Shown: positions 16,513 to 63,158 of the stretch, in pieces
Numbering within the stretch: position 1 is the first letter of the stretch
Layout of the letters: every line of letters starts with the position of its first letter
IMG/VR virus record: IMGVR_UViG_3300031134_000466
DNA length: 64,000 bases
Direction: 5' to 3' (one strand)
DNA from: a virus
Lineage: Duplodnaviria; Heunggongvirae; Uroviricota; Caudoviricetes
Made by a program: the position numbers and the translations under genes
Notes under the pieces: model-generated
The model's database searches: none
Told to the model about the DNA's origin: nothing
Seen by the model: the letters and a program-made list of their open reading frames with translations, nothing else

Positions 16513-16555
16513 TCTCTAACCTACCGCATTAACGTTTGAACCGCAAATCGAGCTT

Positions 16556-17479
16556 TTAGTGAAGATGGGAGAAGTTTTTTACAGCATCAACAGAAACACC
16601 GTTGACTAACGGCTCTAACTCTTTAAGGAAAGAGTTCAGTTCACCTTCATCAGTAGCATGGAGTGTTTTTGAAGCGATTGTCAAAGCTCTACGACCAAGA
16701 AGAAGAGCTGCAAACTGATTCAAACCGTAATCACTCACTGATCTGCCCAGAAGAGTCTCATATTCTTGACGAGCAACTGTCCACAGTTCAGGACGACGCA
16801 TCCGGTGAACCAGGTGAAGATACAGATGAGCTAAATCATATTCGCGTGGAGCAGCTCTTGATTCTTCGAAGGAAGTCCAGACAACACTGTAGTCTTCTTT
16901 CATCACTAAGTTCTCTGGTGTGGCACGTCCATGACTGACAACATTGATTTCAGGTGTTGAAGAAATCATGTTGGTAACAGGCTGAATAATTACTTTGAAC
17001 AAATCCCGTAAACGGTTCTGATTCTCAGCAGTCAAATACTTGAACGAAGGAGAACCCAGCTTCTCTCCGTAGCGTAAGTAGTCATCATTGGAGCTTTCAT
17101 TCAACTGAGGATACTTCAAGCTGTTGTGGATGTAGAACAGTTCCCGTGCTGCGTGAGCTGCTTGCATGGGGTTCATGTTAGTCCCAATTGGATACAGACG
17201 TTCCCATTCCCAAGCGGACAGTACAAGAGGTAACCCTCGTGATGACCTATGGTGAACATTGTCGAATAGAGGGTTTGTACCGTAAGTGGTGTTTACTGCG
17301 AAATCAATTTCTGTTTGCAGAGGAGCTGGGTTAGTTTCTGGCCGGAGGAGCTTGACAAATACACGTTCGTTATCACTGAGAATGTGATGAGGGGAACGGT
17401 TCAAAGAGTCTAATCTCACGATACCGTAGGTGATGTAATTCTGGCTAAGAATTCGGCACACTTCGTGAACAAGATTCAT
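16556..17479 (-). CDS. APH/choline-kinase-fold phosphotransferase-like protein, catalytic motifs divergent
   Basis: 307 aa. 'VFVKL', 'VSHGRATPENLV' where HGDxxxxN is expected, and 'WTSFEES..EYDLAHLY' where iDxE..DLA is expected. Confidence 0.5.
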   Translation of the reverse strand: MNLVHEVCRILSQNYITYGIVRLDSLNRSPHHILSDNERVFVKLLRPETNPAPLQTEIDFAVNTTYGTNPLFDNVHHRSSRGLPLVLSAWEWERLYPIGTNMNPMQAAHAARELFYIHNSLKYPQLNESSNDDYLRYGEKLGSPSFKYLTAENQNRLRDLFKVIIQPVTNMISSTPEINVVSHGRATPENLVMKEDYSVVWTSFEESRAAPREYDLAHLYLHLVHRMRRPELWTVARQEYETLLGRSVSDYGLNQFAALLLGRRALTIASKTLHATDEGELNSFLKELEPLVNGVSVDAVKNFSHLH

Positions 17480-17579
17480 GGGGGTTGGCGACTTCTTTCT
17501 TCCAGGTGCAAAGGCGTAACCCTTCTATTATCGGGTAATGAAAGCCTTACTGCAGAAACTGTGGCAAAAAGAGTTGATC

Positions 17580-18429: not shown

Positions 18430-21147
18430 ATGGCCACCCTCATCGGCGTATCAGGAAAAATTGCGTCAGGTAAAGATTACTTGACTGACAAGCTTGTAAA
18501 CGAACTGAAACGTCTTGGTTTTACCATCGACTACACAGCCTTCGCTGCACCCCTGAAGCAGGAACTCAACGAAATCATCTCTCTGATTCGAGCTTTCCCT
18601 GAACAGGATGAACTGACTCTTTCTTTCTCCATCGCTCGTAATCTGGACATCAACTACGATGATGCTCTTCTGATTGCTACTAATCTGAGAACAGAAGTGC
18701 TTGCAGATGAAACTCTCAACGGTTACTCACGAACAGTCAAAATTCGTGAATCTCTTCAGTATCTTGGTACAGAGATTCGCAGGAAGCAGCGTCCTGAATA
18801 CTGGACTGACTTGTTCTTGAACTTCGTCAACAATTCAGAAACAGATTTCATTTTCGTTTCAGATGCACGTTTTCCTAATGAAATGGACACGGTTGTCGAC
18901 AATCAAGGTGTTGCTCTACGTCTTGACATTCCAGAAGAAGTTCTTGCAGAGCGTCGAAACAAGCGTGACGGCATCAAATACACTGATGAGCAGTTGAATC
19001 ATATCTCAGAAACTGCACTGGATGATTACACCAAATTTGACATGATGATTGGTGTGCAGTTCAACGAACGTGAAATCGTAGAGAATATCCTGAAAAAAGT
19101 TGAACGACTTCAGGAACTTCCTGCAAAAGCTTCTCGCGTCCTGAAAGCCAAAATCGCAGAGCATACACCTTCAGTGTCAGATAAGAAAGATGTTTACCCA
19201 GAGGTGAATTTACCTGAAGGCCAGTACAAAGTGTTGTCTTTGTTTGCAGGTGCAGGTGGATTAGATTTAGGTTTTGAGTTAGCTGGATTAGAAGCAGTTC
19301 ACGGTAAAGAAAAAGTGGACGCTGCTTACAAAGACAAAAAAGCATTTGACGAGCTCCGCAAAGAGAACCTCATTCACACGGTCTACGTAAATGACAACTT
19401 CAAAGATGCAATAGCTTCCTACCGTCAGAACTTTCCTGAAACGTTTATTGACGAACGAGATATCAAAAAAATCAGCAGCTTCCCTGATGCAGACCTTCTG
19501 TTAGGTGGATTCCCTTGCTTCCCTAAAGGAACAGGTGTAGCTACAGAGACAGGTTACAAAAACATTGAAGATGTCGAGAAAGGTGATTTTGTTCTCACTC
19601 ATGAAGGTCGTTACCGTGAAGTAACAGACACCATGACACGCAATGTGAACAAATCAGCCACTCTACATGCTTACGGTTCTCTTCCTTTGGTCTCAACGGT
19701 GAATCATCCTTACTGGGTGAAAGAAACTGTCGATTCTGAACCTAAATGGGTTCATGCTGAGAACATTCAGCCAGGTTGGTTTGTGTCTCATCCAATCAGC
19801 ACATTCAGTACAGATGAAGTAACCGAAAAAGAAGCCAAGTTTGCTTACTTAGCCGGCGTCTTCGCTCAGTGTGGTACAAAAACTTTGAACGACGAGCACA
19901 AGCCAAGCTATCTCACTCCTTACAATGATGAGGAGTTCCTGGCTTTGCTGGCTGAAATTGATGCTGTCTGTTCAAAAGAAGGCAAAAACGTCATCGTCCA
20001 CAGTGAACAGCTGAACAAGATGATGAAATTGTTCGGAACTACCAAATGGAACAAAGTCATTCCTGAAGAGGTCCACCAGAAACCACGAGCTTGGCAGAAA
20101 GCTTTCCTTGACGGCTTCCTGTTCCACAACTCTGACCAGGAAGTGCACAGCAAGAACTTGGCTGTTGGCGTGGCTCGAATTATTCGTAGTTTGAACCCTA
20201 CACAGGATGTTATCGTGTCCTCACCCAAATACAGTTCCTGGATTGTAACTGCAACTGACACTACCGTAGCTCATCATGATGACAACTATGTATGGGTTCC
20301 TGTGGAGCGTTTGCAAGTAAGAAACGAAATGGGAGTACTTCCTGTTTACGATATTACTGTAGCCGAAGACGAATCATTCGTAGCAGATGGATTTGTAGTT
20401 CACAACTGCCCTGGCTTCTCAGCAGCAGGTCTTCGCATGTTAGATGACCCTCGCAACTTCCTGTACCTGCATTTCGTACGAGCTGTTGTTGACGCTCAAC
20501 CAAAGATTTTCGTAGCAGAAAACGTAAAAGGTCTACTCACTCATGGTCAAGGTGAAGCTTTCAACCAGATAGTCGAAGACTTTGCAGCAGCAGGTTACAC
20601 CATCTACTACAAGCTGATGAAAGCAATTCAGCATGGTGTACCTCAGATGAGAGAGCGATTGATTATTGTTGGTGTGCGAAACGACATTGATTTTGAATAC
20701 CAGCATCCTGCTGCCACTCATGGTGAAGGTCTACTTCCATACAAAACTCAAAGAGACGCTTTCTACGATTTGAGGGACCTGAACGATGAACACTACGAAG
20801 GAGACTTCTCTTCTCGCTACCGTTCCAGAAGGTTCAAACTGGACTGGGATGTACCGTCAAAGACCATTTTGGCAACAGGGCGGCACCTGCCTTTGCACCC
20901 TGACGGAGTGCCTCAGGAGAAGCTGGAGCAGGACTTGTGGAGTTTAGACGCTGCAGACCGTAGATTCACTGTAAGAGAAGCTGCACGAATCCAGACATTC
21001 CCTGACTGGTATGATTTCGTGACAACCTCTCGCGGAACAACCAACACAGTCCTGGAGAAACAGTACCGTCAGATAGGTAACGCTGTTCCTGTCGAACTGG
21101 GACGAGTTGTTGCTGAACCTATTGTTCAGTTCCTGAAAAGTCTGTAA
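18430..21147 (+). CDS. dNMP-kinase-like P-loop domain fused to DNA (cytosine-5) methyltransferase, interrupted by an intein
   Basis: 905 aa. N-terminal 'GVSGKIASGKDY' and 'VSDARFPNE'. MTase motif I 'LFAGAGGLDLGF', IV 'GGFP|C..', VI 'ENVKGL', X 'GNAVPV'. Confidence 0.85.
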   Translation: MATLIGVSGKIASGKDYLTDKLVNELKRLGFTIDYTAFAAPLKQELNEIISLIRAFPEQDELTLSFSIARNLDINYDDALLIATNLRTEVLADETLNGYSRTVKIRESLQYLGTEIRRKQRPEYWTDLFLNFVNNSETDFIFVSDARFPNEMDTVVDNQGVALRLDIPEEVLAERRNKRDGIKYTDEQLNHISETALDDYTKFDMMIGVQFNEREIVENILKKVERLQELPAKASRVLKAKIAEHTPSVSDKKDVYPEVNLPEGQYKVLSLFAGAGGLDLGFELAGLEAVHGKEKVDAAYKDKKAFDELRKENLIHTVYVNDNFKDAIASYRQNFPETFIDERDIKKISSFPDADLLLGGFPCFPKGTGVATETGYKNIEDVEKGDFVLTHEGRYREVTDTMTRNVNKSATLHAYGSLPLVSTVNHPYWVKETVDSEPKWVHAENIQPGWFVSHPISTFSTDEVTEKEAKFAYLAGVFAQCGTKTLNDEHKPSYLTPYNDEEFLALLAEIDAVCSKEGKNVIVHSEQLNKMMKLFGTTKWNKVIPEEVHQKPRAWQKAFLDGFLFHNSDQEVHSKNLAVGVARIIRSLNPTQDVIVSSPKYSSWIVTATDTTVAHHDDNYVWVPVERLQVRNEMGVLPVYDITVAEDESFVADGFVVHNCPGFSAAGLRMLDDPRNFLYLHFVRAVVDAQPKIFVAENVKGLLTHGQGEAFNQIVEDFAAAGYTIYYKLMKAIQHGVPQMRERLIIVGVRNDIDFEYQHPAATHGEGLLPYKTQRDAFYDLRDLNDEHYEGDFSSRYRSRRFKLDWDVPSKTILATGRHLPLHPDGVPQEKLEQDLWSLDAADRRFTVREAARIQTFPDWYDFVTTSRGTTNTVLEKQYRQIGNAVPVELGRVVAEPIVQFLKSL
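19516..20406 (+). mobile_element. class 1 intein (297 aa) with degenerate LAGLIDADG-type homing-endonuclease insert
   Basis: Starts 'CFPKGTGVATETG' and has block B 'TVNHPYWV'. 'YLAGVFAQCG' and 'FLDGFLFHNSD' are LAGLIDADG-like. Ends 'VYDITVAEDESFVADGFVVHN' followed by the +1 Cys of 'CPGFSAAG'. Confidence 0.85.
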
Positions 21148-42792: not shown

Positions 42793-44685
<1,893 letters not shown>

Positions 44686-50744: not shown

Positions 50745-50774
50745 TTTGACAGCTGGCTGGGTTTCATGGTAAGT
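50745..50774 (+). promoter_or_regulatory. -35 TTGACA / 18 nt / -10 TAAGTT (TGGTAAGTT)
   Basis: Upstream of the Pnkp gene. Argues against the track's TTG 50774 start. Confidence 0.55.
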
Positions 50775-50800
50775 TGGAGTATCTTAAGTTAGGAAACAAA

Positions 50801-51706
50801 ATGTCACAGATAATGCGGATTCACCGTGGAGTGCAAGGCTCTGGTAAATCCACAGAAGCCATCCGTTGGGTGAACCAGGACCCGTTAAACCGTGCCCGTG
50901 TGAACCGTGATGACATTCGTCTCAGCCAGTTCGGCTCCTACGAGCTTCCTCAGGAACTCGAAGTTGCTGTTACCAAAGTAGAGCATGCCATCATCACCGC
51001 ACTTCTTGCTGCACGCAAAAGTGTTGTTGTTGACAATGTGAACCTGAAAGCCAAGTACGTTAAAGAGTACCTGCTTATTGCGGAGAAAGCCAACGTACCT
51101 GTTGTGCATCAGGACTTCCCTGTGGAGTTGGAGACAGCTCTTGCTCGTAACGCTGCTCGTGACCGTAAAGTCCCTGCACATGTGATTGAGACAACATTCA
51201 AGCGTTACATTCAGAGTGGCAAGTTCCCTCCGTTCCCCGTACTTGACTACGAAGCCGCTGCAGCAGGAATCTATGTTCCTGATGAGACTCTGCCTAAAGC
51301 TATCCTTTTGGATGTTGACGGCACAGCCATGAAGATGGGTTCACATCGTGGACCGTTTGACTGGCACAAAGTCATTGATGACGAGCCTAACCCGCCTGTT
51401 GTTGAAACAGTAAAAGCTTTGCATGCTCAGGGCTACAAAGTTGTTGTCATGTCTGGTCGTGATGAAGTCTGCAAAACAGACACGTTACTTTCTCTGGAAG
51501 TAGCTGGTGTTCCTGTGGATGAAATCTACATGAGACCCCACAACGATTACCGTAAAGACAACATCATCAAGCGTGAACTTTTTGATGCTCACATTCGGGA
51601 GCGTTTCAACATCCTGTTAGCTTTGGATGACCGGAACCAGGTTGTGGACGCTTACCGTCGTGAGCTGGGTCTTCCTGTCTTTCAGGTTGACTACGGAGAC
51701 TTCTAA
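50801..51706 (+). CDS. polynucleotide kinase-phosphatase (Pnkp): P-loop 5'-kinase + HAD 3'-phosphatase
   Basis: 'HRGVQGSGKST' and 'LLDVDGT', 'VVMSGRDE', 'ALDDRNQVV'. AGGAAA RBS. Confidence 0.8.
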   Translation: MSQIMRIHRGVQGSGKSTEAIRWVNQDPLNRARVNRDDIRLSQFGSYELPQELEVAVTKVEHAIITALLAARKSVVVDNVNLKAKYVKEYLLIAEKANVPVVHQDFPVELETALARNAARDRKVPAHVIETTFKRYIQSGKFPPFPVLDYEAAAAGIYVPDETLPKAILLDVDGTAMKMGSHRGPFDWHKVIDDEPNPPVVETVKALHAQGYKVVVMSGRDEVCKTDTLLSLEVAGVPVDEIYMRPHNDYRKDNIIKRELFDAHIRERFNILLALDDRNQVVDAYRRELGLPVFQVDYGDF

Positions 51707-51757: not shown

Positions 51758-52729
51758 TTAAATTTCTCGCAGCTGCACAATTGTCAGTTCAGTTGCTTCA
51801 CCTTTTTTATTGACCCTTTTGACTTTCACATCATTAGCAACAACTTCGAATTTTGCACCACGAGGAATGATGAACTCATACTCTCTTGGACCTTGCGATG
51901 AAATAGCTGTGATTGGGGCTCCACTTTTTGTAAGAATCTGTAAAGAAACATTGATGTTGTCTTTGGAAGGTAAATCTTGAGGATTCAAACTTGTCGATAA
52001 GAAGAATTTAGGTTCGTAAGTGCTACCAACAGGGAAATGTTTGTCGAGGTTTTGAGCGTCATCACTTGAATGATATCCTTTTTCATCATAAAGATGATGA
52101 CGGCGGTAAACCATCACGCCTTCTTCTGCTGGTTCGTGTTTAGCAAAAGCATCATCCAGGATAGTTACAGCTGCATCCAACGTTTCAGGTGCAACATTTT
52201 TTGCGTACGGATTTGTTGAAGCTGAAAGATGGCCGTTGATGTCAGCATAGCCATCTTCTGAATACCAGCGAAGAGTAGCTATTTCAGTATCATCCAGTTT
52301 GGCACTCCAGTTTTGGGAATCTGCCATGCTGTTCAACAGGTCAGCATGTTTGTAATGCATCTCTTCAAGAGTGTCACCAGTTTCGAAAAACGTCGGAGAA
52401 GTGTAAGCAGCTTTTTGTGCTTTTTTGTGGGTGATGACTTTACGATCCGCAACAGCAGCTAATCTTCTGGCTCGTTCTTGAGAAAGCGCTTCGTATTCTT
52501 CTGCATGCCATTCCTGCGTTGGATTCTTTTTGATCTGTCTTTCCAAAGACTTTAGATAAGCTGGTGTTAGTTTGTACTCTGCTTCAGCTTTTCTTCTTAC
52601 CGCTATTAGCTTCTCAAGCTCTGGGTCTTTGCGGTTGTCCATGAAAGCACTGAGAACCGCTTGATGAGCTTTAGCGTAGGTGGCTGCAGCATGAGCTGAA
52701 CAACGGGGACCAGGTTTTGGGTAACACAT
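51758..52729 (-). CDS. R-S-ExE ADP-ribosyltransferase 3 with N-terminal C-x7-C-x2-H module
   Basis: 323 aa. 'MCYPKPGPRCSAHAA' is identical to the ART 2 N-terminus. 'VMVYRRH', 'LSTSLN', 'REYEFIIPRG'. Confidence 0.7.
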   Translation of the reverse strand: MCYPKPGPRCSAHAAATYAKAHQAVLSAFMDNRKDPELEKLIAVRRKAEAEYKLTPAYLKSLERQIKKNPTQEWHAEEYEALSQERARRLAAVADRKVITHKKAQKAAYTSPTFFETGDTLEEMHYKHADLLNSMADSQNWSAKLDDTEIATLRWYSEDGYADINGHLSASTNPYAKNVAPETLDAAVTILDDAFAKHEPAEEGVMVYRRHHLYDEKGYHSSDDAQNLDKHFPVGSTYEPKFFLSTSLNPQDLPSKDNINVSLQILTKSGAPITAISSQGPREYEFIIPRGAKFEVVANDVKVKRVNKKGEATELTIVQLREI

Positions 52730-54121: not shown

Positions 54122-55363
54122 ATGTCAACTACAAGAAAACCTCCTTATCATCACAGCGATGGTACAAACTGCTGGACTAAAGATTGTTCGATCAGAGGCC
54201 GTGAAGATACAGAAAAAGCTGCTTTCTTCAAGCAAGTAGAAACAGCTGCTGAGACTGTTGTTCCAACCAATGAATTGCCTCCTCTGTCAGCTTTTCAGAA
54301 AGCCTATGATGATGGTCGCATTGAGTGCAGCCGCCACCCTGAACATCCTTATGTGACTTACAAGTATTCCAGAACAACTCAGTTTGCTTCTGACTGGGAT
54401 GATGTGACCTTAGCGTCTCGTGGTGTCATCTTCAATGAGGAGACAGGCGAGATTGTTGCTCGTCCATTTGCTAAGTTCTTCAACCATAACGAACCGTCAG
54501 TTCCCAGAGACAAATTACATGGCCGTATTAGTGTAACTGACAAGCTGGACGGTTCTTTAGGAATTGGTTATGTTGATGAGAACGGTAAGTTCAACATTGC
54601 AACCTCTGGAAGCTTTATCTCTGAACAGGCAAAACGTTCTACAGAGCTCTATCATGAGCGTTATGAAGGCAACTGGAAGCCAAATCCTAAGTTGACCTAC
54701 ATGTGGGAAATCATCTACCCAGAAAATCGTGTCGTGGTCAACTATGGCGATGAAGATGACTTGCATCTCATCGGTGCTGTCAACAAACGAACTGGTAAAT
54801 CAGTTCCGTTGCGTGACATCAAAGAATGGAAGTGGAAAAGAGCTGAAGAGTACAAAGACTTCTCCTCCTTGGATGCTGTTCTTCACTCTCCTGAAAGAGA
54901 AAACCGTGAAGGTTTCATTGTTCATTACATCGATACTGATACCCGCGTGAAATACAAGCATGCAGATTATCTTGAGCTCCATCGTAACCGTACTGGCGTG
55001 ACTTCCAAAACTATCTGGCGTAAAATGCGTATGGGTGAAGATATGGCAGGTTGGAAAGAGAACATGCCTGAAGAGTTCAGTGAGTTCGTATCCACTCGTC
55101 AAGCTAAAATCACTGCCGGATATAACAAAGAAATTGCCCAAATTACTGATGAGCATGGCACTTTCAAAGCAACTCTTCCTGCTGGTTATGACCGTAAGAC
55201 TTTTGCTACCACTTTGAAAAACTCACCTCTTGTACCAGCCGAAAACAAAGCTTTCGTCATGAACCTTGAGTTCAACGGCAGTGCTGTTGGAAGTGTTGTT
55301 CAATCTCATAAGATTTGGGACCGTGTGAAACCTGAGGACGAGAACACCTTGTGGAACATGTAA
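54122..55363 (+). CDS. ATP-dependent RNA ligase, paralog B (with Cys-containing N-terminal extension)
   Basis: 413 aa. 'TDKLDGSL', 'WEIIYPENRVVVNY', 'NREGFIVH', 'TRVKYK'. Collinear with paralog A. Confidence 0.75.
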   Translation: MSTTRKPPYHHSDGTNCWTKDCSIRGREDTEKAAFFKQVETAAETVVPTNELPPLSAFQKAYDDGRIECSRHPEHPYVTYKYSRTTQFASDWDDVTLASRGVIFNEETGEIVARPFAKFFNHNEPSVPRDKLHGRISVTDKLDGSLGIGYVDENGKFNIATSGSFISEQAKRSTELYHERYEGNWKPNPKLTYMWEIIYPENRVVVNYGDEDDLHLIGAVNKRTGKSVPLRDIKEWKWKRAEEYKDFSSLDAVLHSPERENREGFIVHYIDTDTRVKYKHADYLELHRNRTGVTSKTIWRKMRMGEDMAGWKENMPEEFSEFVSTRQAKITAGYNKEIAQITDEHGTFKATLPAGYDRKTFATTLKNSPLVPAENKAFVMNLEFNGSAVGSVVQSHKIWDRVKPEDENTLWNM

Positions 55364-55364
55364 T

Positions 55365-55652
55365 TCAAGTAAAGAGGTTCCACAAAAAGTCTCCGACCCC
55401 GAAGATAATAAAGAACAAGTTTATCATTAGAGCAGAAAAGAAAATTTTTTGCGAAACATTGGAGGCTTGACTTTGATTATCAATAAGATTACCAGCTCCA
55501 GCAAATAAGAGGACCAAACCCCACCAAGCCGCTCCCTTAAAAACAAAAATATAAATTACAGCCAGAACAACCAAGATAACATAATAAAACGCGGCAAAAT
55601 AAAGAAGTGCTTGAGTATCTTGTTGTTCTTCATTGGTAGAATTAGTTTTCAC
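55365..55652 (-). CDS. small membrane protein
   Basis: 95 aa, three hydrophobic segments, AT-rich. Confidence 0.5.
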   Translation of the reverse strand: MKTNSTNEEQQDTQALLYFAAFYYVILVVLAVIYIFVFKGAAWWGLVLLFAGAGNLIDNQSQASNVSQKIFFSALMINLFFIIFGVGDFLWNLFT

Positions 55653-55728
55653 CTTGGACCTCCTAATTTTAAATCGGCTGATTATTTTACGAATTGTACT
55701 GTAATTATAGTCATTCTGACGATAAAGA

Positions 55729-55737
55729 TGGTATGAT
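55729..55737 (+). promoter_or_regulatory. extended -10 (TGGTATGAT), near-leaderless operon promoter
   Basis: TATGAT lies 9 nt upstream of ATG 55747. Confidence 0.5.
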
Positions 55738-55746
55738 TAGGATGTT

Positions 55747-56412
55747 ATGAAGAACACATACGGAATTCTCGGCGGATATGGGGCGGTAGCCACCCTACAT
55801 CTCCAGCAGCTGCTCGTGAAGCGAGTCCTCAGCACTGGACAGTACGCTGATATTGCCTTCCCTCGTATGGTAATTTCCAATCTGCCTGAAGACATCATCA
55901 ATGCTGAAGGACATATCAGCAGCCTTGGTAGCCTGCGGACTGAACTTGGTAAAACAGCTCCTCTATTCCAAGGAGCCACAGATGTTTATGTCATTTGTAA
56001 CACCTTCCATGTCGAAGAAGAGTTCATGCAGCGAGTCTTCGCTAACAAACTACATTCTGTTCCGGCTTTAACCAGTCAAGCTGTCGTAGATGCTGGATAC
56101 TCCAAACCTCTTATCGTAGGTTCCAAGCTGACTTCTCAGGATAACCTGTACAGTCATACAGCTTACACCTCAACTAACATGTTTGCGGATGAGCTAATCA
56201 CTGCTGGAATGAAGTACCAGACATCTCACTCTCAGCTGGCAGATGTCATAGCTGCTGCCAAACAGGCTAGCTCAGACTGCATTGTTTTAGGTTGCACAGA
56301 TTTGTCCGTGATGGCTGACACTCTCCGAACCATGACTGCACTTCCCGTAATCGACTCCGTTGAAGCAGTCGCCAACCATATTTACAACTCCCATACGAAA
56401 GATGAATCGTGA
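55747..56412 (+). CDS. Asp/Glu/hydantoin racemase-superfamily enzyme (two-Cys type)
   Basis: 221 aa. 'YGILGGYGAVAT', 'VYVICNTFH', 'IVLGCTDLS', 'PVIDSV'. Confidence 0.75.
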   Translation: MKNTYGILGGYGAVATLHLQQLLVKRVLSTGQYADIAFPRMVISNLPEDIINAEGHISSLGSLRTELGKTAPLFQGATDVYVICNTFHVEEEFMQRVFANKLHSVPALTSQAVVDAGYSKPLIVGSKLTSQDNLYSHTAYTSTNMFADELITAGMKYQTSHSQLADVIAAAKQASSDCIVLGCTDLSVMADTLRTMTALPVIDSVEAVANHIYNSHTKDES

Positions 56413-57374
56413 AAGTCTACAACGACACAGTAACCATGACTGCAGAGCTGGCTCAGACCTTAGAGCAATTGAGAGCTGTGCGGGCTTTTGACGCTACAGA
56501 ATGGATTGAGCGTAAGGTTGTCCTAATCAACCAGTACTTCGCTCAGAACAAGCTCTCAGGGGCTGTAGTAGGTGTTTCTGGTGGCATCGACTCAGCTGTA
56601 GCCCTTTCACTTCTTGTCAAAGCATCCCAGCAAGACAACAGCCCAATTCAGAAGATTGTCCCTCTTCTACTTCCTGCTCTTTCTTACGAAGGTGCAACTA
56701 ACCAAGACGGGGCAGTTCAGCAGGCTACTGACCTATGCCAGAACCTTGGACTGAAGCCAGCTGTTTTCACTAAGCTCACATCTCTTTCCCAAGTGATTAC
56801 TTCTGAACTGGAAGACATTCTGGACATCAAATCAACAGACTGGGCTAAAGGACAGCTAGTGGCTTACACCAGAACCCCAGTCCTGTACAACACCTGCTCA
56901 ATCCTTACTGACGCCGGCTACCCTGCACTGGTTGTAGGAACCACAAACCTTTCCGAAGGTGGATACCTCGGTTATGTCGGAAAAGCTTCAGATGGTATGG
57001 TTGACCTGCAAGTAATTTCTGATTTGTACAAGTCAGAAGTGTACAAAGTCGCAGCTTTACTTGAAGTTCCTGAAAGCGTTATGAAAGCTACTCCTACAGG
57101 GGACATGTACGACGGTCGTGAAGATGAAACAGTTTTCGGAGCTTCTTACGACTTCGTAGAGCTGTTTCATCTATGGCTACAGGCACGCAGCGTCCCATTG
57201 AAACTTCTTCGAGATGCCCACTTTGTCACAGGAGCTAAAAACCTGCAAAAACTGCACGACTACAACGCACATAAGTACACCTACGGAACTCCATCCATTC
57301 ACCTGGACATTATGAACGCAGCAATCCCAAACGGATGGAACAATCAGCCTTGGAGGCCCCAGAATGGCAACTAA
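56409..57374 (+). CDS. divergent NadE-family PP-loop amidotransferase (NAD or NMN synthetase-like)
   Basis: 321 aa. 'GVSGGIDSAV', 'VVGTTNLSEGGYLGYVGKASDGMVD', 'ATPTGDMY..EDETVFGASYDFVE'. GTGA overlap with the upstream stop codon. Confidence 0.7.
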   Translation: MKVYNDTVTMTAELAQTLEQLRAVRAFDATEWIERKVVLINQYFAQNKLSGAVVGVSGGIDSAVALSLLVKASQQDNSPIQKIVPLLLPALSYEGATNQDGAVQQATDLCQNLGLKPAVFTKLTSLSQVITSELEDILDIKSTDWAKGQLVAYTRTPVLYNTCSILTDAGYPALVVGTTNLSEGGYLGYVGKASDGMVDLQVISDLYKSEVYKVAALLEVPESVMKATPTGDMYDGREDETVFGASYDFVELFHLWLQARSVPLKLLRDAHFVTGAKNLQKLHDYNAHKYTYGTPSIHLDIMNAAIPNGWNNQPWRPQNGN

Positions 57375-58104
57375 ATTCGTAAACCAAGTCAACTTCGAAA
57401 TCCCTACTGTTGCTCACACAGTTCAAGTGAGACCGTTCCCTGAACTTGACCGTACAGCGGTAGTGATTCCTGAACTCGTCCCTGCCGAGGAAAAAGTCAG
57501 TATCATGGCAGCGTTGGAAGACTCCAACTGGCAGCCAGTGTCAGTGACAGGAATGTCAGGAAACTGGAAAGAAGGTGACCCTATTGGTTCTTACCGTGCT
57601 TCCAACTACACTCCTGAGTATGCTGAAGTTCTGTGGAACAGAATCAAACACGGTTTCCCTACTGTACGCACATTCACAGATGCTGATAACACCGACTTCG
57701 ATGGTCATGAGCTGTGGGAACCCATTGGCGTGTCACCTCTTCTTCGATTCATCAAATATGAAGAAGGCGGCTGGCTTGTAGTTCATTACGATGCTCCGTA
57801 TGTCGAATCAGAAGATGTTCGCACACTCCAAAGCCTTGTCGTATATCTGGAACACCCAGGTGAACTTCACGGAGGAGCAACCCGCTACCTTCATGACCCT
57901 CAGGCTCATCTTCCTGTTACTCAGCGTGAACTCAACGACGAATACCGTGCTGCTGAAGAAGATGAAGTGAGACTCCGCTTCGCTCCTGAAGATGGAACAG
58001 CTGTAGTCTTCGACCACCGCCTTCTGCATGACGCTGAAAAGGTCACAGGAACTGGCACAAAAACAATCATTCGAACAGACATTATGTACAGGAAAGTACG
58101 ATGA
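57364..58104 (+). CDS. 2OG-Fe(II) oxygenase (P4H-like)
   Basis: 246 aa. 'VVHYDAP' (HxD), 'VVFDHRLLHDAE' (distal His), 'KTIIRTDIMY'. 11-nt overlap with the upstream gene. Confidence 0.65.
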   Translation: MATKFVNQVNFEIPTVAHTVQVRPFPELDRTAVVIPELVPAEEKVSIMAALEDSNWQPVSVTGMSGNWKEGDPIGSYRASNYTPEYAEVLWNRIKHGFPTVRTFTDADNTDFDGHELWEPIGVSPLLRFIKYEEGGWLVVHYDAPYVESEDVRTLQSLVVYLEHPGELHGGATRYLHDPQAHLPVTQRELNDEYRAAEEDEVRLRFAPEDGTAVVFDHRLLHDAEKVTGTGTKTIIRTDIMYRKVR

Positions 58105-59624
58105 ATTTAGACAGATACTTCCAGGCTCTTTACGAAAGAACCAATAGTAAGCAGGACTTAGTAACAGCAGGTTGGATTGAAAACAAGCCGCTACGCATCA
58201 ACCCGCATGTGCGATTCTACACAACCCCTCTGCAAGCTATTCGTGACGCGGGCAAAAAGGACGTATCTGTCTTGTTCTACCCTGGTTGTTTCGCTCCAGT
58301 CCATGAAGGTCACCTTGGGGCTATGAGGCTGGCCAAAGAAGCAATTGAAACCCAGACAGGCGAGACTGTAGCTGCAGGCTATTTCACCCCTGACCATGAT
58401 AACTACATCATGCGTAAAACTCATGACGAACGTTTCATCGCACCTAACCGCATCGCTCTTCTCCATGAAGCAGTAGAAAATGAACCCTGGATGCAGGTGG
58501 ACGACTGGGCTTCACTGTACGCTCCCACTGATTTGAACTTCACAACACTATATGACAGGTTCAACCTTTACCTGAAGCGTTGGTTACCTGACTTGAACAT
58601 CAAGCTGTACATGGTTTTTGGTGGAGACAACTACATGTTTGCGAACAGTTTCACTGAATACGGACACGGTGTTTGTGTGCCAAGAGAAGGAGCTCAGATG
58701 GACTTGAGCTTAGTTCACCCTGATGCCAAAAAGCGGGTTATTTTCAGCGAAAAAGTCTGTACAGACCATTCTTCTACAGCTGCACGAGCAGCAAACCCTG
58801 GAGCTATCGATATCCACGGCAGAAGTGCATTAGGTTCCACCTATGTACTTCGTGAAGACTTGGACTTAGCTTTCCGAGAGAACCCTACTACTTACTCGAA
58901 CAAAATTATTGCTGACTCTGTAGCTATTCTTTTGCAGGCGCATGTGCCGTACGAGAAAGTCAAAGTGAAAAGAGTTCCCATTATCAGGCAGATGGCTAAC
59001 CATACTGAGACAGAGAATGTGATTTCCTTAGACTGTTTCTGGAAAGCAGAGCAGAACCTTGAAATTTCTCGCCTGTTTTCAACTGGAGGCAGTCAGCACC
59101 ATGCCATCAAATACGTCAACCGTCCTGGCTCGCCGGCTCTTCAAGAGCAGGTAGAAGCAATTCCTGCTGGAGTGTACACTCTCGTAGATGATGACATTGC
59201 TACTGGGGAGACAATGAGTTTTGTTTCCAACATGCTGGAAACGCACGATGTTGTTGTTGATAAGCAGGACAGCCTGATTTCCGAGCTGGGTTCTGACTTG
59301 TACGATGTAGTTGATTTGCGAGACTTTGTTCTTGGAACCGAACACGGCGGACTGACGGTTGCAACTCCTACAGGAGAAACGACAAGAATGCCTTACATCG
59401 CTCCTTATGTGAATCTTGTAAGCCGTGCTCGCATTAACCCTGACCGGGTGTTCAGTTTCTCCACCGAACTGTGGAAATTGAACTATGCACTTTACCGTAA
59501 TACGAAAACTACAGTAGGTGACATCAAAGAACATCAGGACTTCACCATGTTCGGTTTTGCCGAAGACATGACAGTGGCTGACTTGTGCCAAAAGCATCTT
59601 CAATTGATGACTGAATTGCAGTAA
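58101..59624 (+). CDS. NadD/NMNAT-type adenylyltransferase fused to a type I phosphoribosyltransferase domain
   Basis: 507 aa. 'GCFAPVHEGHL' ((H/T)xGH), 'HSSTAAR' (SxTxxR), C-terminal PRPP-binding loop 'YTLVDDDIATGETM'. ATGA overlap with the upstream gene. Confidence 0.75.
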   Translation: MNLDRYFQALYERTNSKQDLVTAGWIENKPLRINPHVRFYTTPLQAIRDAGKKDVSVLFYPGCFAPVHEGHLGAMRLAKEAIETQTGETVAAGYFTPDHDNYIMRKTHDERFIAPNRIALLHEAVENEPWMQVDDWASLYAPTDLNFTTLYDRFNLYLKRWLPDLNIKLYMVFGGDNYMFANSFTEYGHGVCVPREGAQMDLSLVHPDAKKRVIFSEKVCTDHSSTAARAANPGAIDIHGRSALGSTYVLREDLDLAFRENPTTYSNKIIADSVAILLQAHVPYEKVKVKRVPIIRQMANHTETENVISLDCFWKAEQNLEISRLFSTGGSQHHAIKYVNRPGSPALQEQVEAIPAGVYTLVDDDIATGETMSFVSNMLETHDVVVDKQDSLISELGSDLYDVVDLRDFVLGTEHGGLTVATPTGETTRMPYIAPYVNLVSRARINPDRVFSFSTELWKLNYALYRNTKTTVGDIKEHQDFTMFGFAEDMTVADLCQKHLQLMTELQ

Positions 59625-59641
59625 GATGATAGACATGATGC

Positions 59642-60238
59642 ATGCTTGAAATACTTACAGCGGTAGGTCTTGCTTTAGCGGCAGGGTTGAACGCTTACAT
59701 TCCTCTGATTGCTGTCAGTTTGTTATCAAAGTTCACTGATTTTTTCACTCTTCCAGGAAACTGGTCATGGATGGAAGACAACTGGACATTAGCGATCTTG
59801 ATTGCTTTAGCTTTAGTAGAGTTCTTTGCTGACAAAATAGCTGCAGTTGACTCGTTGAATGATGTCATCCAAACAGCAGTCCGTCCAACATCAGGCGGAT
59901 TGCTGTTTGCTGCAGGTACCCATGTAACAGATGTTCCTGTGACTCAGATTAGTAATTTTGTGAGTTCTCCAGGCTTTCCTATGTTCATCATTGGTTTGAC
60001 TGTTGCTTTGCTTCCTCATTTGATGAAGATGTTCATCAGGCCGCTTATTAACGCAACGATGAGTGGAATGGTGACACCCATTGTCAGTTTTGGTGAAAAC
60101 ATTCTTACAGTAGGTTTGGTTGCTATGGCTATATTCATTCCAGTGCTGGTACCAGTAGCAGTAATACTGGTCATTGTTATAGGAGTACGGATTTTCCGAA
60201 ACCTCACCGCGAAAAAGAGTAAAACAGCAACAGCCTGA
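59642..60238 (+). CDS. DUF4126-like membrane protein
   Basis: 198 aa. 'EFFADKIAAVDSLNDVIQTAVRPTSGG' and about 5 TM segments. 17 nt after the upstream stop codon. Confidence 0.6.
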   Translation: MLEILTAVGLALAAGLNAYIPLIAVSLLSKFTDFFTLPGNWSWMEDNWTLAILIALALVEFFADKIAAVDSLNDVIQTAVRPTSGGLLFAAGTHVTDVPVTQISNFVSSPGFPMFIIGLTVALLPHLMKMFIRPLINATMSGMVTPIVSFGENILTVGLVAMAIFIPVLVPVAVILVIVIGVRIFRNLTAKKSKTATA

Positions 60239-60246
60239 AGTTGTTC

Positions 60247-60255
60247 CGATAGACT
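60247..60255 (+). promoter_or_regulatory. -10 element (CGATAGACT)
   Basis: 75-nt leader with an AAAGGAG RBS before ATG 60331. Confidence 0.5.
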
Positions 60256-60330
60256 GAGTTAGCATGCTTAGCATGTCTGCCCTGGCAGTAAACCAGTTTA
60301 TTCGATTTAGACAACAAAGGAGTACCTATC

Positions 60331-61548
60331 ATGGTGCAAAAACCAGAACGCGGGCGTTACTTAGAGCTTGAAGGTGTACGTGTTTCGTATAAACACAAAG
60401 ATGATTCCATCCACCTCACAGCAACAGACCCAGATGTTCCTCAGATAAACATCACCCTAAACAAAGGGACAGCGACAGAAGATTCGCTTAGAGATTTGCT
60501 CGTAGAGTACGGTTTAATTAGAGAATCAGAGTCTAATGCTGTTACCGAAATGGAACCTATCCCATATTACGCGGGTAACCCATTCTCAGCATTGCTGGCA
60601 GAATCACATATCCCGTCAGACAGAGCCAAGAACATTCTTCTTACAGGACAGCCAGGTTCAGGTAAAACCGTGGCCGCATCCTATGCAGCATTTCTTGCAC
60701 AAGGAATGAACATGCCTACTTTCGTCATGGGGCTTGCAGTTGACTATCTGAAAACGCTCAATGAAGACACCCAGGTTCTGATGCTGACAAAAATGGAATC
60801 AGGCTACCTGAATCCATTCAAAACAAAAATGTCAACAGAGCAGATTCTTCACTTTATCAACACTTTGACACTTCCAAGAGATGCTTACTATCAAGCACGA
60901 GCAAACCAGACGATAACAACACTCATCAAACAACAGTATGAAACTAAGCAGCCTTCATTGACTGGACTGCTACAAGTAATCAGCAAGTATGAAGAACTCC
61001 AATATGAAACAGCTGCTCTTTCCCATTTGGGTCTTAGCCCTGTAGGAGCTCCATTCTTTGGATACTCAGAGAACGTATTAGTGATTGATCCTGACAAGGA
61101 TTATGTCTTTGATGCCGCTGAAGTTCCGCTTGTAGCACCAGTAGAAGCATTGGACACTACTCAGGCAAGACAGAACACTGCAATCATTCAAGCAGTGTTC
61201 CATTTTGTTAGACAGCATTCACGACCAAGTAGTCAACCAAAAATGCTGATTGTCGACGGGAGGAATTACCAGTATGTTACTGAACTGAACCAGCTCAGTA
61301 GGTTAGCCCGAAGCCTAAATTTGGTTATGCTCACAGTAGGTGAACTTGAAGAAAATAACAGTCAATACTCTGACTTCATGGCTTACCGCTCTTCAACCGC
61401 AGAGACATCTGAACTTTTTGGTAAAAGGCTTGACACGCTTTCTTCAGGTCAATCTTATTGGAGAAACGAAGACGGAGAGGTCTTCTTTGTCCCTCGACCT
61501 ACCCTTCCAGCATCGTTTGCAAGAATTTTTGACACAATACCCAGATAA
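60331..61548 (+). CDS. P-loop NTPase (HerA/FtsK/VirB4-like?)
   Basis: 405 aa. Walker A 'GQPGSGKT', Walker B-like 'KMLIVDG'. The family assignment is tentative. Confidence 0.5.
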   Translation: MVQKPERGRYLELEGVRVSYKHKDDSIHLTATDPDVPQINITLNKGTATEDSLRDLLVEYGLIRESESNAVTEMEPIPYYAGNPFSALLAESHIPSDRAKNILLTGQPGSGKTVAASYAAFLAQGMNMPTFVMGLAVDYLKTLNEDTQVLMLTKMESGYLNPFKTKMSTEQILHFINTLTLPRDAYYQARANQTITTLIKQQYETKQPSLTGLLQVISKYEELQYETAALSHLGLSPVGAPFFGYSENVLVIDPDKDYVFDAAEVPLVAPVEALDTTQARQNTAIIQAVFHFVRQHSRPSSQPKMLIVDGRNYQYVTELNQLSRLARSLNLVMLTVGELEENNSQYSDFMAYRSSTAETSELFGKRLDTLSSGQSYWRNEDGEVFFVPRPTLPASFARIFDTIPR

Positions 61549-61575
61549 TACCTGCCAAACACACAGGTTATCTCA

Positions 61576-61584
61576 TGGTAGAAT
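61576..61584 (+). promoter_or_regulatory. extended -10 (TGGTAGAAT), leaderless
   Basis: TAGAAT lies 6 nt upstream of ATG 61591. Confidence 0.6.
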
Positions 61585-61590
61585 AGTTAA

Positions 61591-62238
61591 ATGAACACCA
61601 TCCAGTTCCACGCCCAACACGGTGAAGACCCAAACACTGTAACTATTCAGCCCAGTGAAAGTAGCAAGTTTGCTGACATTATCAACAATATAGGTAAAGC
61701 TTTTCTTCAGCCTGCCTGGAATCAAGACATCCTTCGTAAAGCAATAGCAGCAGAGAACTCTCTTTCGCAAGAGACAAGAGATATAGTGCGCTGGGCTGAA
61801 CAGTTCACCACTAAGTTCAATAACAAGGAATTCAACCTTGTTGTAGAAGAGCAGGTATTGGATAGTTACAGTATCAACTTGAACACAGTGCAAAGCGTTG
61901 GCAACAACAGTATGAAACTCCTTGCCAGGCTTCACCATGCGACCCGAATGTGGATTGCTGTAGAAGATACAGACTGGGTAGCAGATATCATCCAAGATGC
62001 CCACCCCGACATCTTTCAGAAGGACAAAGGCTGGCTGGATGTCATCAATCTTCTCAGACAGAATCATGCTGTCCCTGTCATTGTCACCAGTAATAACAAC
62101 AGTTGGAATTGGAACACAGATAAGGCTGAAGAGTTGACGTTTGAACAGCAGCTCACTCCGCACACATGGGAAAGTTACATGTATGGGCACGGATATGATG
62201 CATTGGCAGTCGTTCGAAAACTTTCTCAAAGGAAATAG
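61591..62238 (+). CDS. hypothetical protein
   Basis: 215 aa. Preferred over the antisense 218-aa ORF, which is Cys-rich and has no promoter. Confidence 0.6.
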
Positions 62239-62268
62239 TCACAAAAACGTGCTTTTTCGTCAATATGA

Positions 62269-62277
62269 CGATATACT
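62269..62277 (+). promoter_or_regulatory. -10 element (CGATATACT)
   Basis: 35-nt leader with an AAGGAAGG RBS before ATG 62313. Confidence 0.5.
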
Positions 62278-62312
62278 GTAATAAGAATGGTCTAAGGAAG
62301 GAAACCCGTATC

Positions 62313-63158
62313 ATGACCAAGCTCCAGAAACAGATTATTAACACTCTTGGGGTAAAACCCGTCATCAATGCCGAACAGGAGCTACGCACTCGTGTAGATT
62401 TCCTCAAAGACTTCACCCGTAATGCTGGCACCAGAGGATTTGTACTTGGAATCAGTGGTGGACAGGACTCTGCTCTTGCCGGCTACATTGCACAGACAGC
62501 TGTCCGTGAACTCCGCGACGAGACGGGTGAGAACTACCAGTTCTTAGCTCTTCTTCTTCCTTACGGGACTCAGAAAGACGCTGATGATGCAATCACCATC
62601 GCCCGTGACTTCATCAAGGCTGACCAGGTAATTGAGTACAACATCAAGCCTGCAGTGGATGCTTTCACTGACCAGTACAATGACATCGCTGGCTGGTCAG
62701 GCGATGAAGCTGATAACCTCAGCGATTACCATAAAGGTAACGTCAAAGCCCGCACCCGTGCCGTAACACAGTACGCTTACGCTGGTACCCATCAGCTGCT
62801 TGTTGTAGGTACAGACCATGCTGCTGAGGCAGTATCAGGCTTCTTCACCAAGTTCGGTGACGGTGCAGCTGACGTTCTCCCTTTGAGCGGTTTGAACAAA
62901 CGTCAGGGCAAAGAGCTTCTTCGCTTGGCAGGTGCTCCCGAGTTCGTCATCACCAAAGCTCCCACAGCGGACCTTCTGGACAACAAAGCAGGTCAGGCTG
63001 ATGAGACTGAGCTGGGTATTACATACGATGTTCTTGACGACTACCTTGAAGGTAAAGATGTCAATGTAGTTGCAGCTCAGAAAATTGAACTGCGTTACCT
63101 GATGACAGAACACAAGCGTCAACTCCCAGTTGACCCTGCAGCAACATGGTGGAAGTGA
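62313..63158 (+). CDS. nadE: NH3-dependent NAD+ synthetase (canonical NadE)
   Basis: '[10 protein letters not shown]', 'NVKARTR', '[24 protein letters not shown]', '[27 protein letters not shown]'. Confidence 0.9.

Follow-up and report, generated by a model that had tools for sequence, protein, structure and literature searches.

We analyzed an open reading frame (ORF) in a 64,000-nucleotide stretch of DNA (the window) from the Caudoviricetes record IMGVR_UViG_3300031134_000466, which the original prediction described as a single polypeptide joining an NMNAT to a type I phosphoribosyltransferase (PRT) with a classical phosphoribosyl pyrophosphate (PRPP) loop. The ORF and its parts are listed below; conserved residues refer to alignment A1, which contains 30 family sequences with identities down to ~30%.

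58101..59624, + strand: NMNAT-PRT-like fusion ORF, ATG start, 507 amino acids (aa)
58101..58262, + strand: family-specific N-terminal extension, aa 1-54; D4, A23-G24 and T42 conserved (A1)
58263..58805, + strand: NMNAT (HIGH-type nucleotidyltransferase) domain, aa 55-235
58290..58316, + strand: HxGH ATP-binding motif 'FAPVHEGHL', aa 64-72; H68, H71
58770..58787, + strand: SxxxxR motif 'SSTAAR', aa 224-229; S225, R229
58839..59621, + strand: diverged type I PRT-like domain, aa 247-507
59172..59225, + strand: PRPP-loop motif VYTLVDDDIATGETMSFV, aa 358-375

Both halves of the protein keep their signature residues across the family. In the 30-sequence alignment the invariant positions are G62, F64, P66, H68, G70, H71, S225 and R229 in the N-terminal half, and D311, R324, F326, Q332, R341, L361, D363-D365, G369, D405, R407, D408, G417, L418, R429 and R442 in the C-terminal half. 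Because invariant residues occur in both, neither half is a decayed relic, and neither was found in the alignment to lack essential catalytic residues. The AlphaFold2 (AF2) model of the fusion protein shows confident packing between the domains (pTM 0.90), which, together with the recurrence of the fusion in hundreds of sequence clusters, rules out a chance fusion, a misassembly or a pseudogene. The predicted architecture was borne out. Literature searches returned no description of the fusion architecture or of the gene cassette described below, and neither was found in PDB, Pfam, NCBIfam, PHROGs or PADLOC; this agrees with the earlier statement that no characterized NAD enzyme is known to be built in this way, and no common, characterized architecture with a non-NAD function came to light. 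The protein consists of a genuine NMNAT domain followed by a type I PRT-like domain, which has diverged strongly, is elaborated in structure and goes unrecognized by curated models.

The only Pfam match in the fusion protein is to PF01467 (CTP_transf_like); it is restricted to aa 59-230 in the N-terminal half and scores 35.7 bits, above the cutoff of 21. This half scored 37.9 bits against the NMNAT equivalog TIGR00482, for which the cutoff is 112.45, and the other NCBIfam NMNAT matches were weak and below threshold. The (H/T)xGH motif is present as H68-E-G-H71 at the end of strand 1, and the SxxxxR motif as S224-S225-T-A-A-R229. A sequence search of PDB matched eukaryote-type NMNATs (9iw1, 1kqn) over aa 39-140, in an alignment that covers the GxFxPxHxxH motif and a 'VDxW' stretch equivalent to 'VDTW' of human NMNAT1, and that places the HxGH motif against GSFNPITNMH of the human enzyme. 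The fold of the N-domain is Rossmann-like and lies nearer to NMNATs than to other cytidylyl- or adenylyltransferases. Identity to human NMNAT1 and NMNAT3, fungal NMNAT (PDB 1kqn, 5z9r, 9iw1) and bacterial NadD is 21-24%; compared with these enzymes, the fusion adds the conserved 54-aa N-terminal extension and a 260-aa PRT-like domain, and it lacks what we take to be the segment bearing Trp169 of human NMNAT1. The N-domain is thus predicted to lie inside the NMNAT superfamily, yet it belongs to no recognized equivalog or orthologue group.

No model in Pfam, NCBIfam or PHROG covers the C-terminal half, and a short, sub-threshold plastocyanin-type match at aa 363-393 was treated as noise. PF00156, the curated family of type I PRTs, gave no match to the window protein even at E 0.1, and a stand-alone family member, P0045, reached 22.1 bits, just under the cutoff of 26.3. 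When a profile of the C-domain was compared with PDB, it matched APRT, ComF, HPRT, OPRT and PRPP synthase, in each case at the PRPP loop and marginally (E 0.02-1); whether searched by fold or by profile, the best matches were all type I PRTs (APRT, OPRT, HGPRT), which consistently ranked above PRPP synthases, and Adps structures were not matched. The loop 'LVDDDIATGET' is in register with 'VVDDLLATGGT' of APRT (VVVDDLLATGGT) and reads L361-V-D363-D364-D365-I-A-T368-G369-E-T371 in the window protein, with L361, D363-D365 and G369 invariant in A1. In the phage members described below the loop carries DSD or DHD, with D364 replaced, which leaves D363 and D365 as the acidic residues shared by the whole family. 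The hairpin carrying the conserved arginines R324 and R341 is assigned by us to the position of the PRT flexible loop, on the basis of how secondary structure is arranged in the model. The C-domain accordingly resembles the type I PRTs of PF00156 (APRT, OPRT, HGPRT) in its PRPP loop, probably in its core alpha/beta fold and, in the model, in a hairpin at the putative flexible-loop site. These features suggest that it descends from, and works like, type I PRTs, yet it remains below the threshold of the curated family.

The family is large. A word-indexed search recovered 44 clusters, nearly all of ~500 aa and almost all metagenomic, whose members carry either no name or the JGI name 'nicotinic acid mononucleotide adenylyltransferase'. 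The C-domain profile, used in an exhaustive HMMER search, recovered representatives of 1143 clusters formed at 50% identity, of which 843 had E≤1e-10 and 530 had E≤1e-30. Among the best 150 representatives, ~85% are longer than 400 aa with the C-domain at the C-terminus, and PF01467 was found in 7/7 long members scanned, so that the fusion is the dominant architecture. Larger combinations also occur: P0137, P0165 and P0170 (1143-1198 aa) consist of NAD_synthase, 2OG-FeII_Oxy_3/PhyH, CTP_transf_like and PRT-like domains, similar four-domain fusions are present at loci L009 and L014, P0141 joins a 2-oxoglutarate (2OG) oxygenase to the NMNAT and PRT-like domains, and P0048 has an extra C-terminal GNAT domain. 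A few C-domains stand alone, P0045 among them. The gene cassette described below is also present in small-genome bacteria of the candidate phyla radiation (CPR). Similarity searches with the fusion gene gave zero DNA or protein matches in 50,697 phage records and 72,556 plasmids, and a scan of IMG/VR for relatives also returned zero.

In the window the fusion gene is the fourth in a tightly packed, overlapping series with an operon-like layout. The features upstream of it are:

55708..55737, + strand: promoter-like site TAGTCA-18-TATGAT with TG, just 5' of the first cassette gene; a weak consensus match
55747..56412, + strand: Asp/Glu-racemase-family gene, 221 aa (PF01177, E 1e-9)
56409..57374, + strand: diverged NadE-like PP-loop synthetase gene, 321 aa, GTG start (PF02540, E 1e-31)
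57364..58104, + strand: 2OG-Fe(II) oxygenase gene, 246 aa (PF13640 and PhyH)

The promoter-like site is the sole + strand sigma-70-like match within 55200-61800. The best PDB match of the racemase-like protein is the aspartate racemase of P. horikoshii (1jfl, E 1e-7), with both cysteine motifs, CNTxH and GCT, aligned. The NadE-like gene overlaps the racemase gene by 4 nt. Its product contains the PP-loop motif SGGxDS as 'VSGGIDS', scores 107.6 bits against TIGR00552 (cutoff 63.65) and has the NH3-dependent NadE 2e18 and the Francisella enzyme 3fiu as best PDB matches; it stays well below the equivalog models for NH3-dependent NadE, with 122 bits against 255 for NF010587 and 74 against 250 for NF001979. 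The PF02540 and TIGR00552 matches indicate that this cassette partner shares the PP-loop synthetase fold of NadE enzymes, both NH3- and glutamine-dependent. The oxygenase gene shares 11 nt with the NadE-like gene and 4 nt with the fusion gene. H141-x-D143, H218/H222 and R237 are invariant in 10 orthologues of its product, which thus keeps the HxD...H triad and the 2OG-binding arginine; no close solved structure was found for it.

A set of 30 related loci was assembled by looking up exact proteins and by scanning genomes and metagenomes for sequence patterns, and all of their ORFs were compared with the parts of the cassette. The counts that follow refer to the 19 independent loci with sufficient flanking sequence; the genome scan (A3), which needs exact 8-residue patterns, undercounts and gives at least 7 loci. 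A NadE-like orthologue is adjacent or fused in 19/19 loci, with 39-70% identity to the cassette type and ~25% to canonical NadE. A 2OG oxygenase occurs in 14 of the 19, and the other five (L010, L013, L016/17, L018/19 and L029) have a radical S-adenosylmethionine (SAM) gene beside the cassette. Each locus thus has one of the two kinds of oxidizing enzyme and never both (Fisher exact p = 1/C(19,5), ~9e-5), an exclusivity that was predicted before the loci were tabulated. In L006, L008, L012 and L015 the NadE-like enzyme and the 2OG oxygenase form one protein of ~590 aa. The radical SAM proteins of L013, L018 and L029 are RaSEA-like: they match the RaSEA equivalog TIGR01210 with E 2e-59 and, at 201.7 bits, come close to its cutoff of 212. 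L010 and L016 carry two other radical SAM enzymes, together with a pyridoxal phosphate (PLP) enzyme resembling diaminopimelate decarboxylase and a GNAT domain fused to the NMNAT-PRT protein. L010 comes from a Christensenella bin, a genus that we take to be anaerobic; this would fit the exchange of an O2-dependent enzyme for an O2-independent one. A racemase-like gene accompanies both oxidase types, in 7/19 loci, and stands beside the cassette in L003, L005, L008, L012, L013 and L029. The NMNAT-PRT gene is the hallmark of a widespread, undescribed cassette with a NadE-like synthetase and an obligatory oxidizing enzyme. The original prediction, which considered the gene by itself, is supported in part: the functional unit is larger, with the synthetase and the oxidizing enzyme invariably coupled to the gene and in some cases fused with it into a four-domain protein.

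Some of these loci differ in their layout. In L016 (ENA contig k141_218451, 239-18118) genes for an IS110 transposase, a Mob_Pre relaxase, helix-turn-helix (HTH) regulators and a serine resolvase surround the cassette, which indicates that the GNAT/radical SAM version travels on a mobile element. In L012, from a gammaproteobacterial metagenome-assembled genome, the NMNAT and PRT-like parts at 5806-7703 are encoded by two overlapping ORFs (5806-6879 and 6702-7703), an arrangement due to a natural split, to a frameshift or to faulty assembly; the gene between these ORFs and the NadE-2OG fusion encodes an amino-acid racemase. In loci of alphaproteobacterial type, a second, paralogous 2OG-Fe(II) oxygenase is encoded in the reverse orientation just past the fusion gene (L006/L011, 9747-10586, - strand; L027, ~10660, - strand), with 30% identity to the cassette oxygenase and 35% to ME3_305 of phage ME3.

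Relatives of the cassette were also found in cultured phages. In a Foldseek comparison with viral structure predictions, the one significant match was a 212-aa protein of Acinetobacter phage ME3 (E 3e-8), which we identified as ME3_299 from its same length and its profile match. ME3_299 (gp299, AND75460.1) matched the C-domain profile with E 6e-13; its gene overlaps the start of ME3_298, a 'NAD synthetase' that resembles the cassette NadE-like protein more closely than it does canonical NadE, and lies 1.3 kb from ME3_305, a homologue of the cassette oxygenase. The Ter-type PRTases of this phage, ME3_286 and ME3_288, are proteins distinct from the family member ME3_299. Among the 50,697 phage records, the cassette-type oxygenase is present in four phages, namely ME3, Xanthomonas X1, Xanthomonas BUDD and Variovorax V45v66, and a NadE-like gene adjoins it in 4/4. 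In X1 and V45v66 the gene immediately upstream encodes a compact NMNAT-PRT-like member of 371 and 381 aa, respectively, with full-length profile E-values of 5e-11 for X1 (WEM34357.1) and 2e-11 for the V45v66 ORF (PV558790, L037, 3966-5111). The N-terminal extension is recognizable in both ('AGWFD'). The proteins of these cultured jumbo phages differ from the window protein in being shorter (371, 381 and 212 aa) and in having the degenerate PRPP loop (DSD or DHD). ME3 has the PRT-like part alone, with an NMNAT gene elsewhere, and all phage members are annotated as hypothetical.

Other genes of NAD metabolism accompany the cassette. In the window these include a second NadE gene:

62265..63158, + strand: second, canonical NadE gene, 297 aa (PF02540, E 1e-65), 2.6 kb downstream of the fusion gene

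This canonical NadE is 58-100% identical in L001, L003 and L020-L023 and ~25% identical to the cassette NadE-like protein 5 kb away; the duplication into canonical and cassette types is repeated in the same loci. A canonical NadE lies within ~6 kb of the cassette in the window, L001 and L003. An NAMPT gene is directly upstream of the cassette in L012, genes for PnuC and a full NadR follow it in L018/19, and both are also found in L029. Phage X1 has a separate NMNAT and, nearby, an NAMPT. No NAMPT, Namat, PnuC or NadR was found in the parts of the window that were covered by cassette blastp over 45-64 kb and by Pfam scans of ORFs of at least 150 aa.

On balance, we give an even chance to the reading that four activities make up a conserved pathway to a pyridine dinucleotide, most likely NAD+, with the fusion ORF as its bifunctional core; the route set out here is the simplest that employs all four. 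First, the PRT-like domain would use PRPP to convert a pyridine base bearing a carboxylate, in the simplest case nicotinate, into the mononucleotide. The NMNAT domain would then adenylylate this product to the deamido-dinucleotide, the carboxylate of which would be activated by the cassette NadE-like enzyme with ATP. Lastly, the oxidizing partner would finish the amidation; in aerobic lineages this partner is a 2OG-Fe(II) oxygenase, elsewhere a radical SAM enzyme that is often RaSEA-like. Instead of ammonia or glutamine, an amino acid supplied by the racemase-like or PLP-decarboxylase partners would provide the amide nitrogen. The oxidase would abstract a hydrogen from the carbon beside the new amide nitrogen, upon which the carbon skeleton would leave and the primary amide stay. 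Such C-N cleavage would follow the logic of archaeosine synthesis by ArcS and RaSEA and of peptidylglycine alpha-amidation. Use of an amino-acid donor would account for the fusion of NadE-like enzyme and oxidase, the aerobic/anaerobic swap, the racemase and decarboxylase partners and the coexisting canonical, ammonia-dependent NadE. What was observed are the domain identities, the conserved motifs, the coupling of genes and domains, the mutual exclusion of oxygenase and radical SAM enzyme and the links to NAD genes; every chemical step of this route is conjectural, and the amidation by the NadE-like enzyme and oxidase is a proposal by analogy.

The nature of the oxidative step is suggested by the RaSEA-like character of the radical SAM protein. 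In archaeosine synthesis ArcS attaches lysine, rather than NH4+, Asn or Gln, and RaSEA then strips the lysine skeleton while the nitrogen stays (PMC11298593). The resemblance to the proposed route lies in a two-step installation of nitrogen, in which an amino acid (lysine) is attached and a radical SAM enzyme removes its carbon skeleton. ArcS-RaSEA differs in acting on a nitrile on tRNA and in its transferase, since ArcS resembles TGT and is no PP-loop synthetase. It serves as a mechanistic analogy and gives no evidence of membership, and in most loci, including the window, a 2OG oxygenase replaces the radical SAM enzyme. A 2012 survey of the NadE family describes a nitrogen supply of the glutaminase type only (PMC3376133). 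Compared with that survey, the cassette NadE-like enzyme never occurs with a nitrilase-type glutaminase, and its pairing with an oxidase falls outside the four arrangements given there (PMC3376133). A further-reaching claim, which we hold tentatively and regard as doubtful, is that the cassette represents a third mode of installing the NAD amide nitrogen, besides free ammonia and glutaminase-channelled glutamine, and that a type I PRT fold replaces the type II PRTs, forming a self-contained NAD pathway of giant phages, CPR bacteria and mobile elements.

Several points weigh against the proposed route to NAD+. To our knowledge, the nicotinate, nicotinamide and quinolinate PRTs are all of type II. 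An oxidase has no place in a plain Preiss-Handler route, and the role proposed for it here would rest on analogy; the catalytic activities of all cassette components are predictions. The closest PDB matches of the NadE-like protein are ordinary NH3-dependent enzymes, the radical SAM proteins of L010 and L016 are not RaSEA-like, and the racemase is missing from most loci. The co-occurring canonical NadE, NAMPT or NadR could equally mean a product other than NAD.

This last point leads to the rival reading that survives best, although we think it unlikely: the product is a modified NAD analogue, for example a dinucleotide whose nicotinoyl carboxylate still bears a (hydroxylated) amino acid or amine, or one that contains another carboxylated heterocycle. 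Such an analogue could be a substrate for viral ADP-ribosyltransferases, a cofactor resistant to host NADases, a signal or an antimetabolite. A second full NAD route looks redundant in genomes that carry canonical NadE, NAMPT, NMNAT or NadR, and the variable partners (a fused GNAT, a PLP decarboxylase, two radical SAM enzymes, a racemase) are typical of tailoring chemistry. The window itself encodes at least three enzymes of the ADP-ribosyltransferase type, and one cassette version is on a mobile element. However, the cassette is carried by small-genome CPR bacteria, where basic cofactor supply is the more economical explanation, and its NMNAT domain is nearest to bona fide NMN/NaMN adenylyltransferases. 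The likeness to RaSEA favours removing rather than retaining the appended group, and the cassette clusters with ordinary NAD salvage genes, as is typical of NAD regulons.

It is improbable that the C-domain is a binder of ribose-5-phosphate ligands (PRPP, ADP-ribose or a nucleotide) rather than a base PRT, whether as a Prs/Adps-like pyrophosphokinase feeding an NAMPT- or Namat-type enzyme or as an allosteric sensor of the NMNAT similar to PurR or PyrR. The degenerate acidic pair of the PRPP loop in phage members would fit this reading, as would the NAMPT-family gene that immediately precedes the cassette in L012 and lies close to it in phage X1, an arrangement as in the NARP1 and NARP2 modules. 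The ranking of PRTs above PRPP synthases in the fold and profile searches, with no Adps structure matched, argues against it. A PRPP synthase needs two PRT-type cores, and a single one is present here. The ~20 invariant residues, including five arginines, suggest catalysis over sensing, and an NAMPT-type partner is missing in most loci.

We find it very unlikely that the oxidase acts upstream to free or create the pyridine base, for example by oxidatively removing the N-methyl group of trigonelline or N-methylnicotinamide, or by desaturating or decarboxylating a pyridine that is reduced or dicarboxylated, with the NadE-like enzyme as an ordinary ammonia-dependent synthetase specialized for the module. 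N-demethylation, desaturation and oxidative decarboxylation are common reactions of 2OG oxygenases, the closest solved relatives of the NadE-like protein are NH3-dependent, and an upstream oxidase would explain the coexistence with routes that start from nicotinamide or nicotinamide riboside; against this, fusion of the oxidase to the NadE-like protein is far commoner than to other partners, which suggests consecutive steps, the anaerobic replacement is RaSEA-like, a type known for C-N cleavage after amino-acid transfer, and the racemase and decarboxylase partners are left unexplained. A 7-deazapurine (QueC/ToyH-like) pathway was considered for the set of PP-loop, PRT and RaSEA-like proteins and rejected, as the neighbourhood annotations obtained contain no QueD, QueE or FolE and do contain NAMPT, PnuC, NadR and NadE. 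An anti-phage defence system was likewise rejected, with no PADLOC match for the racemase-like, NadE-like and fusion proteins and a match of the oxygenase to the generic 2OG model only.

The proposed route to NAD+ can be compared with known fusions and phage modules. NMNAT is likewise fused or clustered with an enzyme of a neighbouring step in NadR (NMNAT and the kinase RNK), in NadM/NatV (NMNAT and Nudix) and in phage NARP2 and NARP3. The cassette differs from NadR and NadM/NatV in that the partner domain is type I PRT-like instead of a P-loop kinase or Nudix domain, and in that a NadE-like protein and an oxidase are always added. NadR with PnuC (L018, L029) or NAMPT (L012, phage X1) occurs beside the cassette in addition to it. 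NARP1 consists of Adps (PRPS-like) and Namat, NARP2 of NAMPT and NMNAT, and NARP3 of PnuC and a NadR-like protein; such NAD modules of large phages probably secure NAD (PMC7824862, PMC13464706). Equating the cassette with NARP1, NARP2 or NARP3 was rejected, as the component lists differ and the C-domain matches Prs/Adps at the PRPP loop only (E 0.64). The cassette may share with them the end of NAD supply.

NAD biosynthesis is held to be nearly fully mapped, with type II PRTs, the adenylyltransferases NadD, NadM, NadR and NMNAT, and NadE with or without a glutaminase. Here, more than 1000 sequence clusters have an NMNAT fused to an unrecognized PRT-like domain and are tied to a diverged NadE and an oxidase. 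Were NAD the product, the PRTs that act on pyridine bases would gain a new class, and the amidation might be chemically new as well; a NAD analogue would be a new cofactor or signal. The proposed route, if true, would be a fourth NAD-supply strategy of large phages against NAD-depleting immunity, with a bearing on phage therapy and defence biology, and would explain the source of NAD in some small-genome CPR bacteria. The cassette is carried by the cultured phages Xanthomonas X1 and Acinetobacter ME3 and is therefore directly testable.

The window encodes at least three NAD-consuming proteins of the ADP-ribosyltransferase (ART) type, comprising two exoenzyme-type ARTs (PF03496) and one protein with PARP and WGR domains; one of them is at 51758-52729 (- strand). 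This set points to a heavy NAD demand beside the two NadE genes. The presence of the cassette in a phage-like genome of very large size, together with several ADP-ribosyltransferases that consume NAD, suggests that it supplies NAD in infection.

The window had no phage or plasmid DNA match, and tRNA and Rfam scans over its 64 kb found nothing. Its gene repertoire is jumbo-phage-like and includes PNKP, two Rnl1-type ligases, ARTs, PARP, ribonucleotide reductase (RNR), dCMP deaminases and NT5C, as well as MazG, vWA-TerF, Hsp70, an intein-split dNMP kinase/methylase and YqaJ-RNase T. A 98%-identical copy is on a 789 kb metagenomic contig (L020, Ga0308164_10000007, 788,683 bp), and 63%-identical relatives are on contigs of 878,612 and 883,042 bp (L022, L023; Ga0308164_10000004 and Ga0308161_1000006); none of these is listed as viral in IMG/VR. 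The largest phage genomes known to us are of ~735 kb, and the contigs of 789-883 kb, if viral, would exceed them. The host replicon is either an exceptionally large virus or a small cellular genome.

Downstream of the fusion gene, the window contains a membrane protein gene that is lineage-specific, being kept solely in the closest relatives L001 and L020-L023:

59642..60238, + strand: DUF4126 membrane protein gene (PF13548, E 7e-45)

It is followed by a 405-aa P-loop NTPase (60331-61548, + strand) with weak matches to nSTAND3, AAA_10 and the PADLOC model 'mad8'; a counterpart with 30% identity is at the equivalent position in L001. The 905-aa ORF at 18430-21147 (+ strand) has a dNMP-kinase-like N-terminus and a C5 cytosine DNA methyltransferase, with a Hint/intein inserted at aa ~360-660. 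An RNA-repair set consists of a PNKP-type kinase/phosphatase and two T4 Rnl1-type RNA ligases (PF09511), with members at 50774-51706 (+ strand) and 54122-55363 (+ strand). The relatives L003 and L005 also carry Thg1 and 2H/HAD 'SAK' enzymes. The set suggests that tRNA-cleaving defences are countered. A full-length Hsp70/DnaK is encoded at 42826-44685 (+ strand; E 5e-232), and a ClpB-type chaperone at 16224-17512 of the related L001, so that chaperones are encoded by this putative giant virus-like genome.

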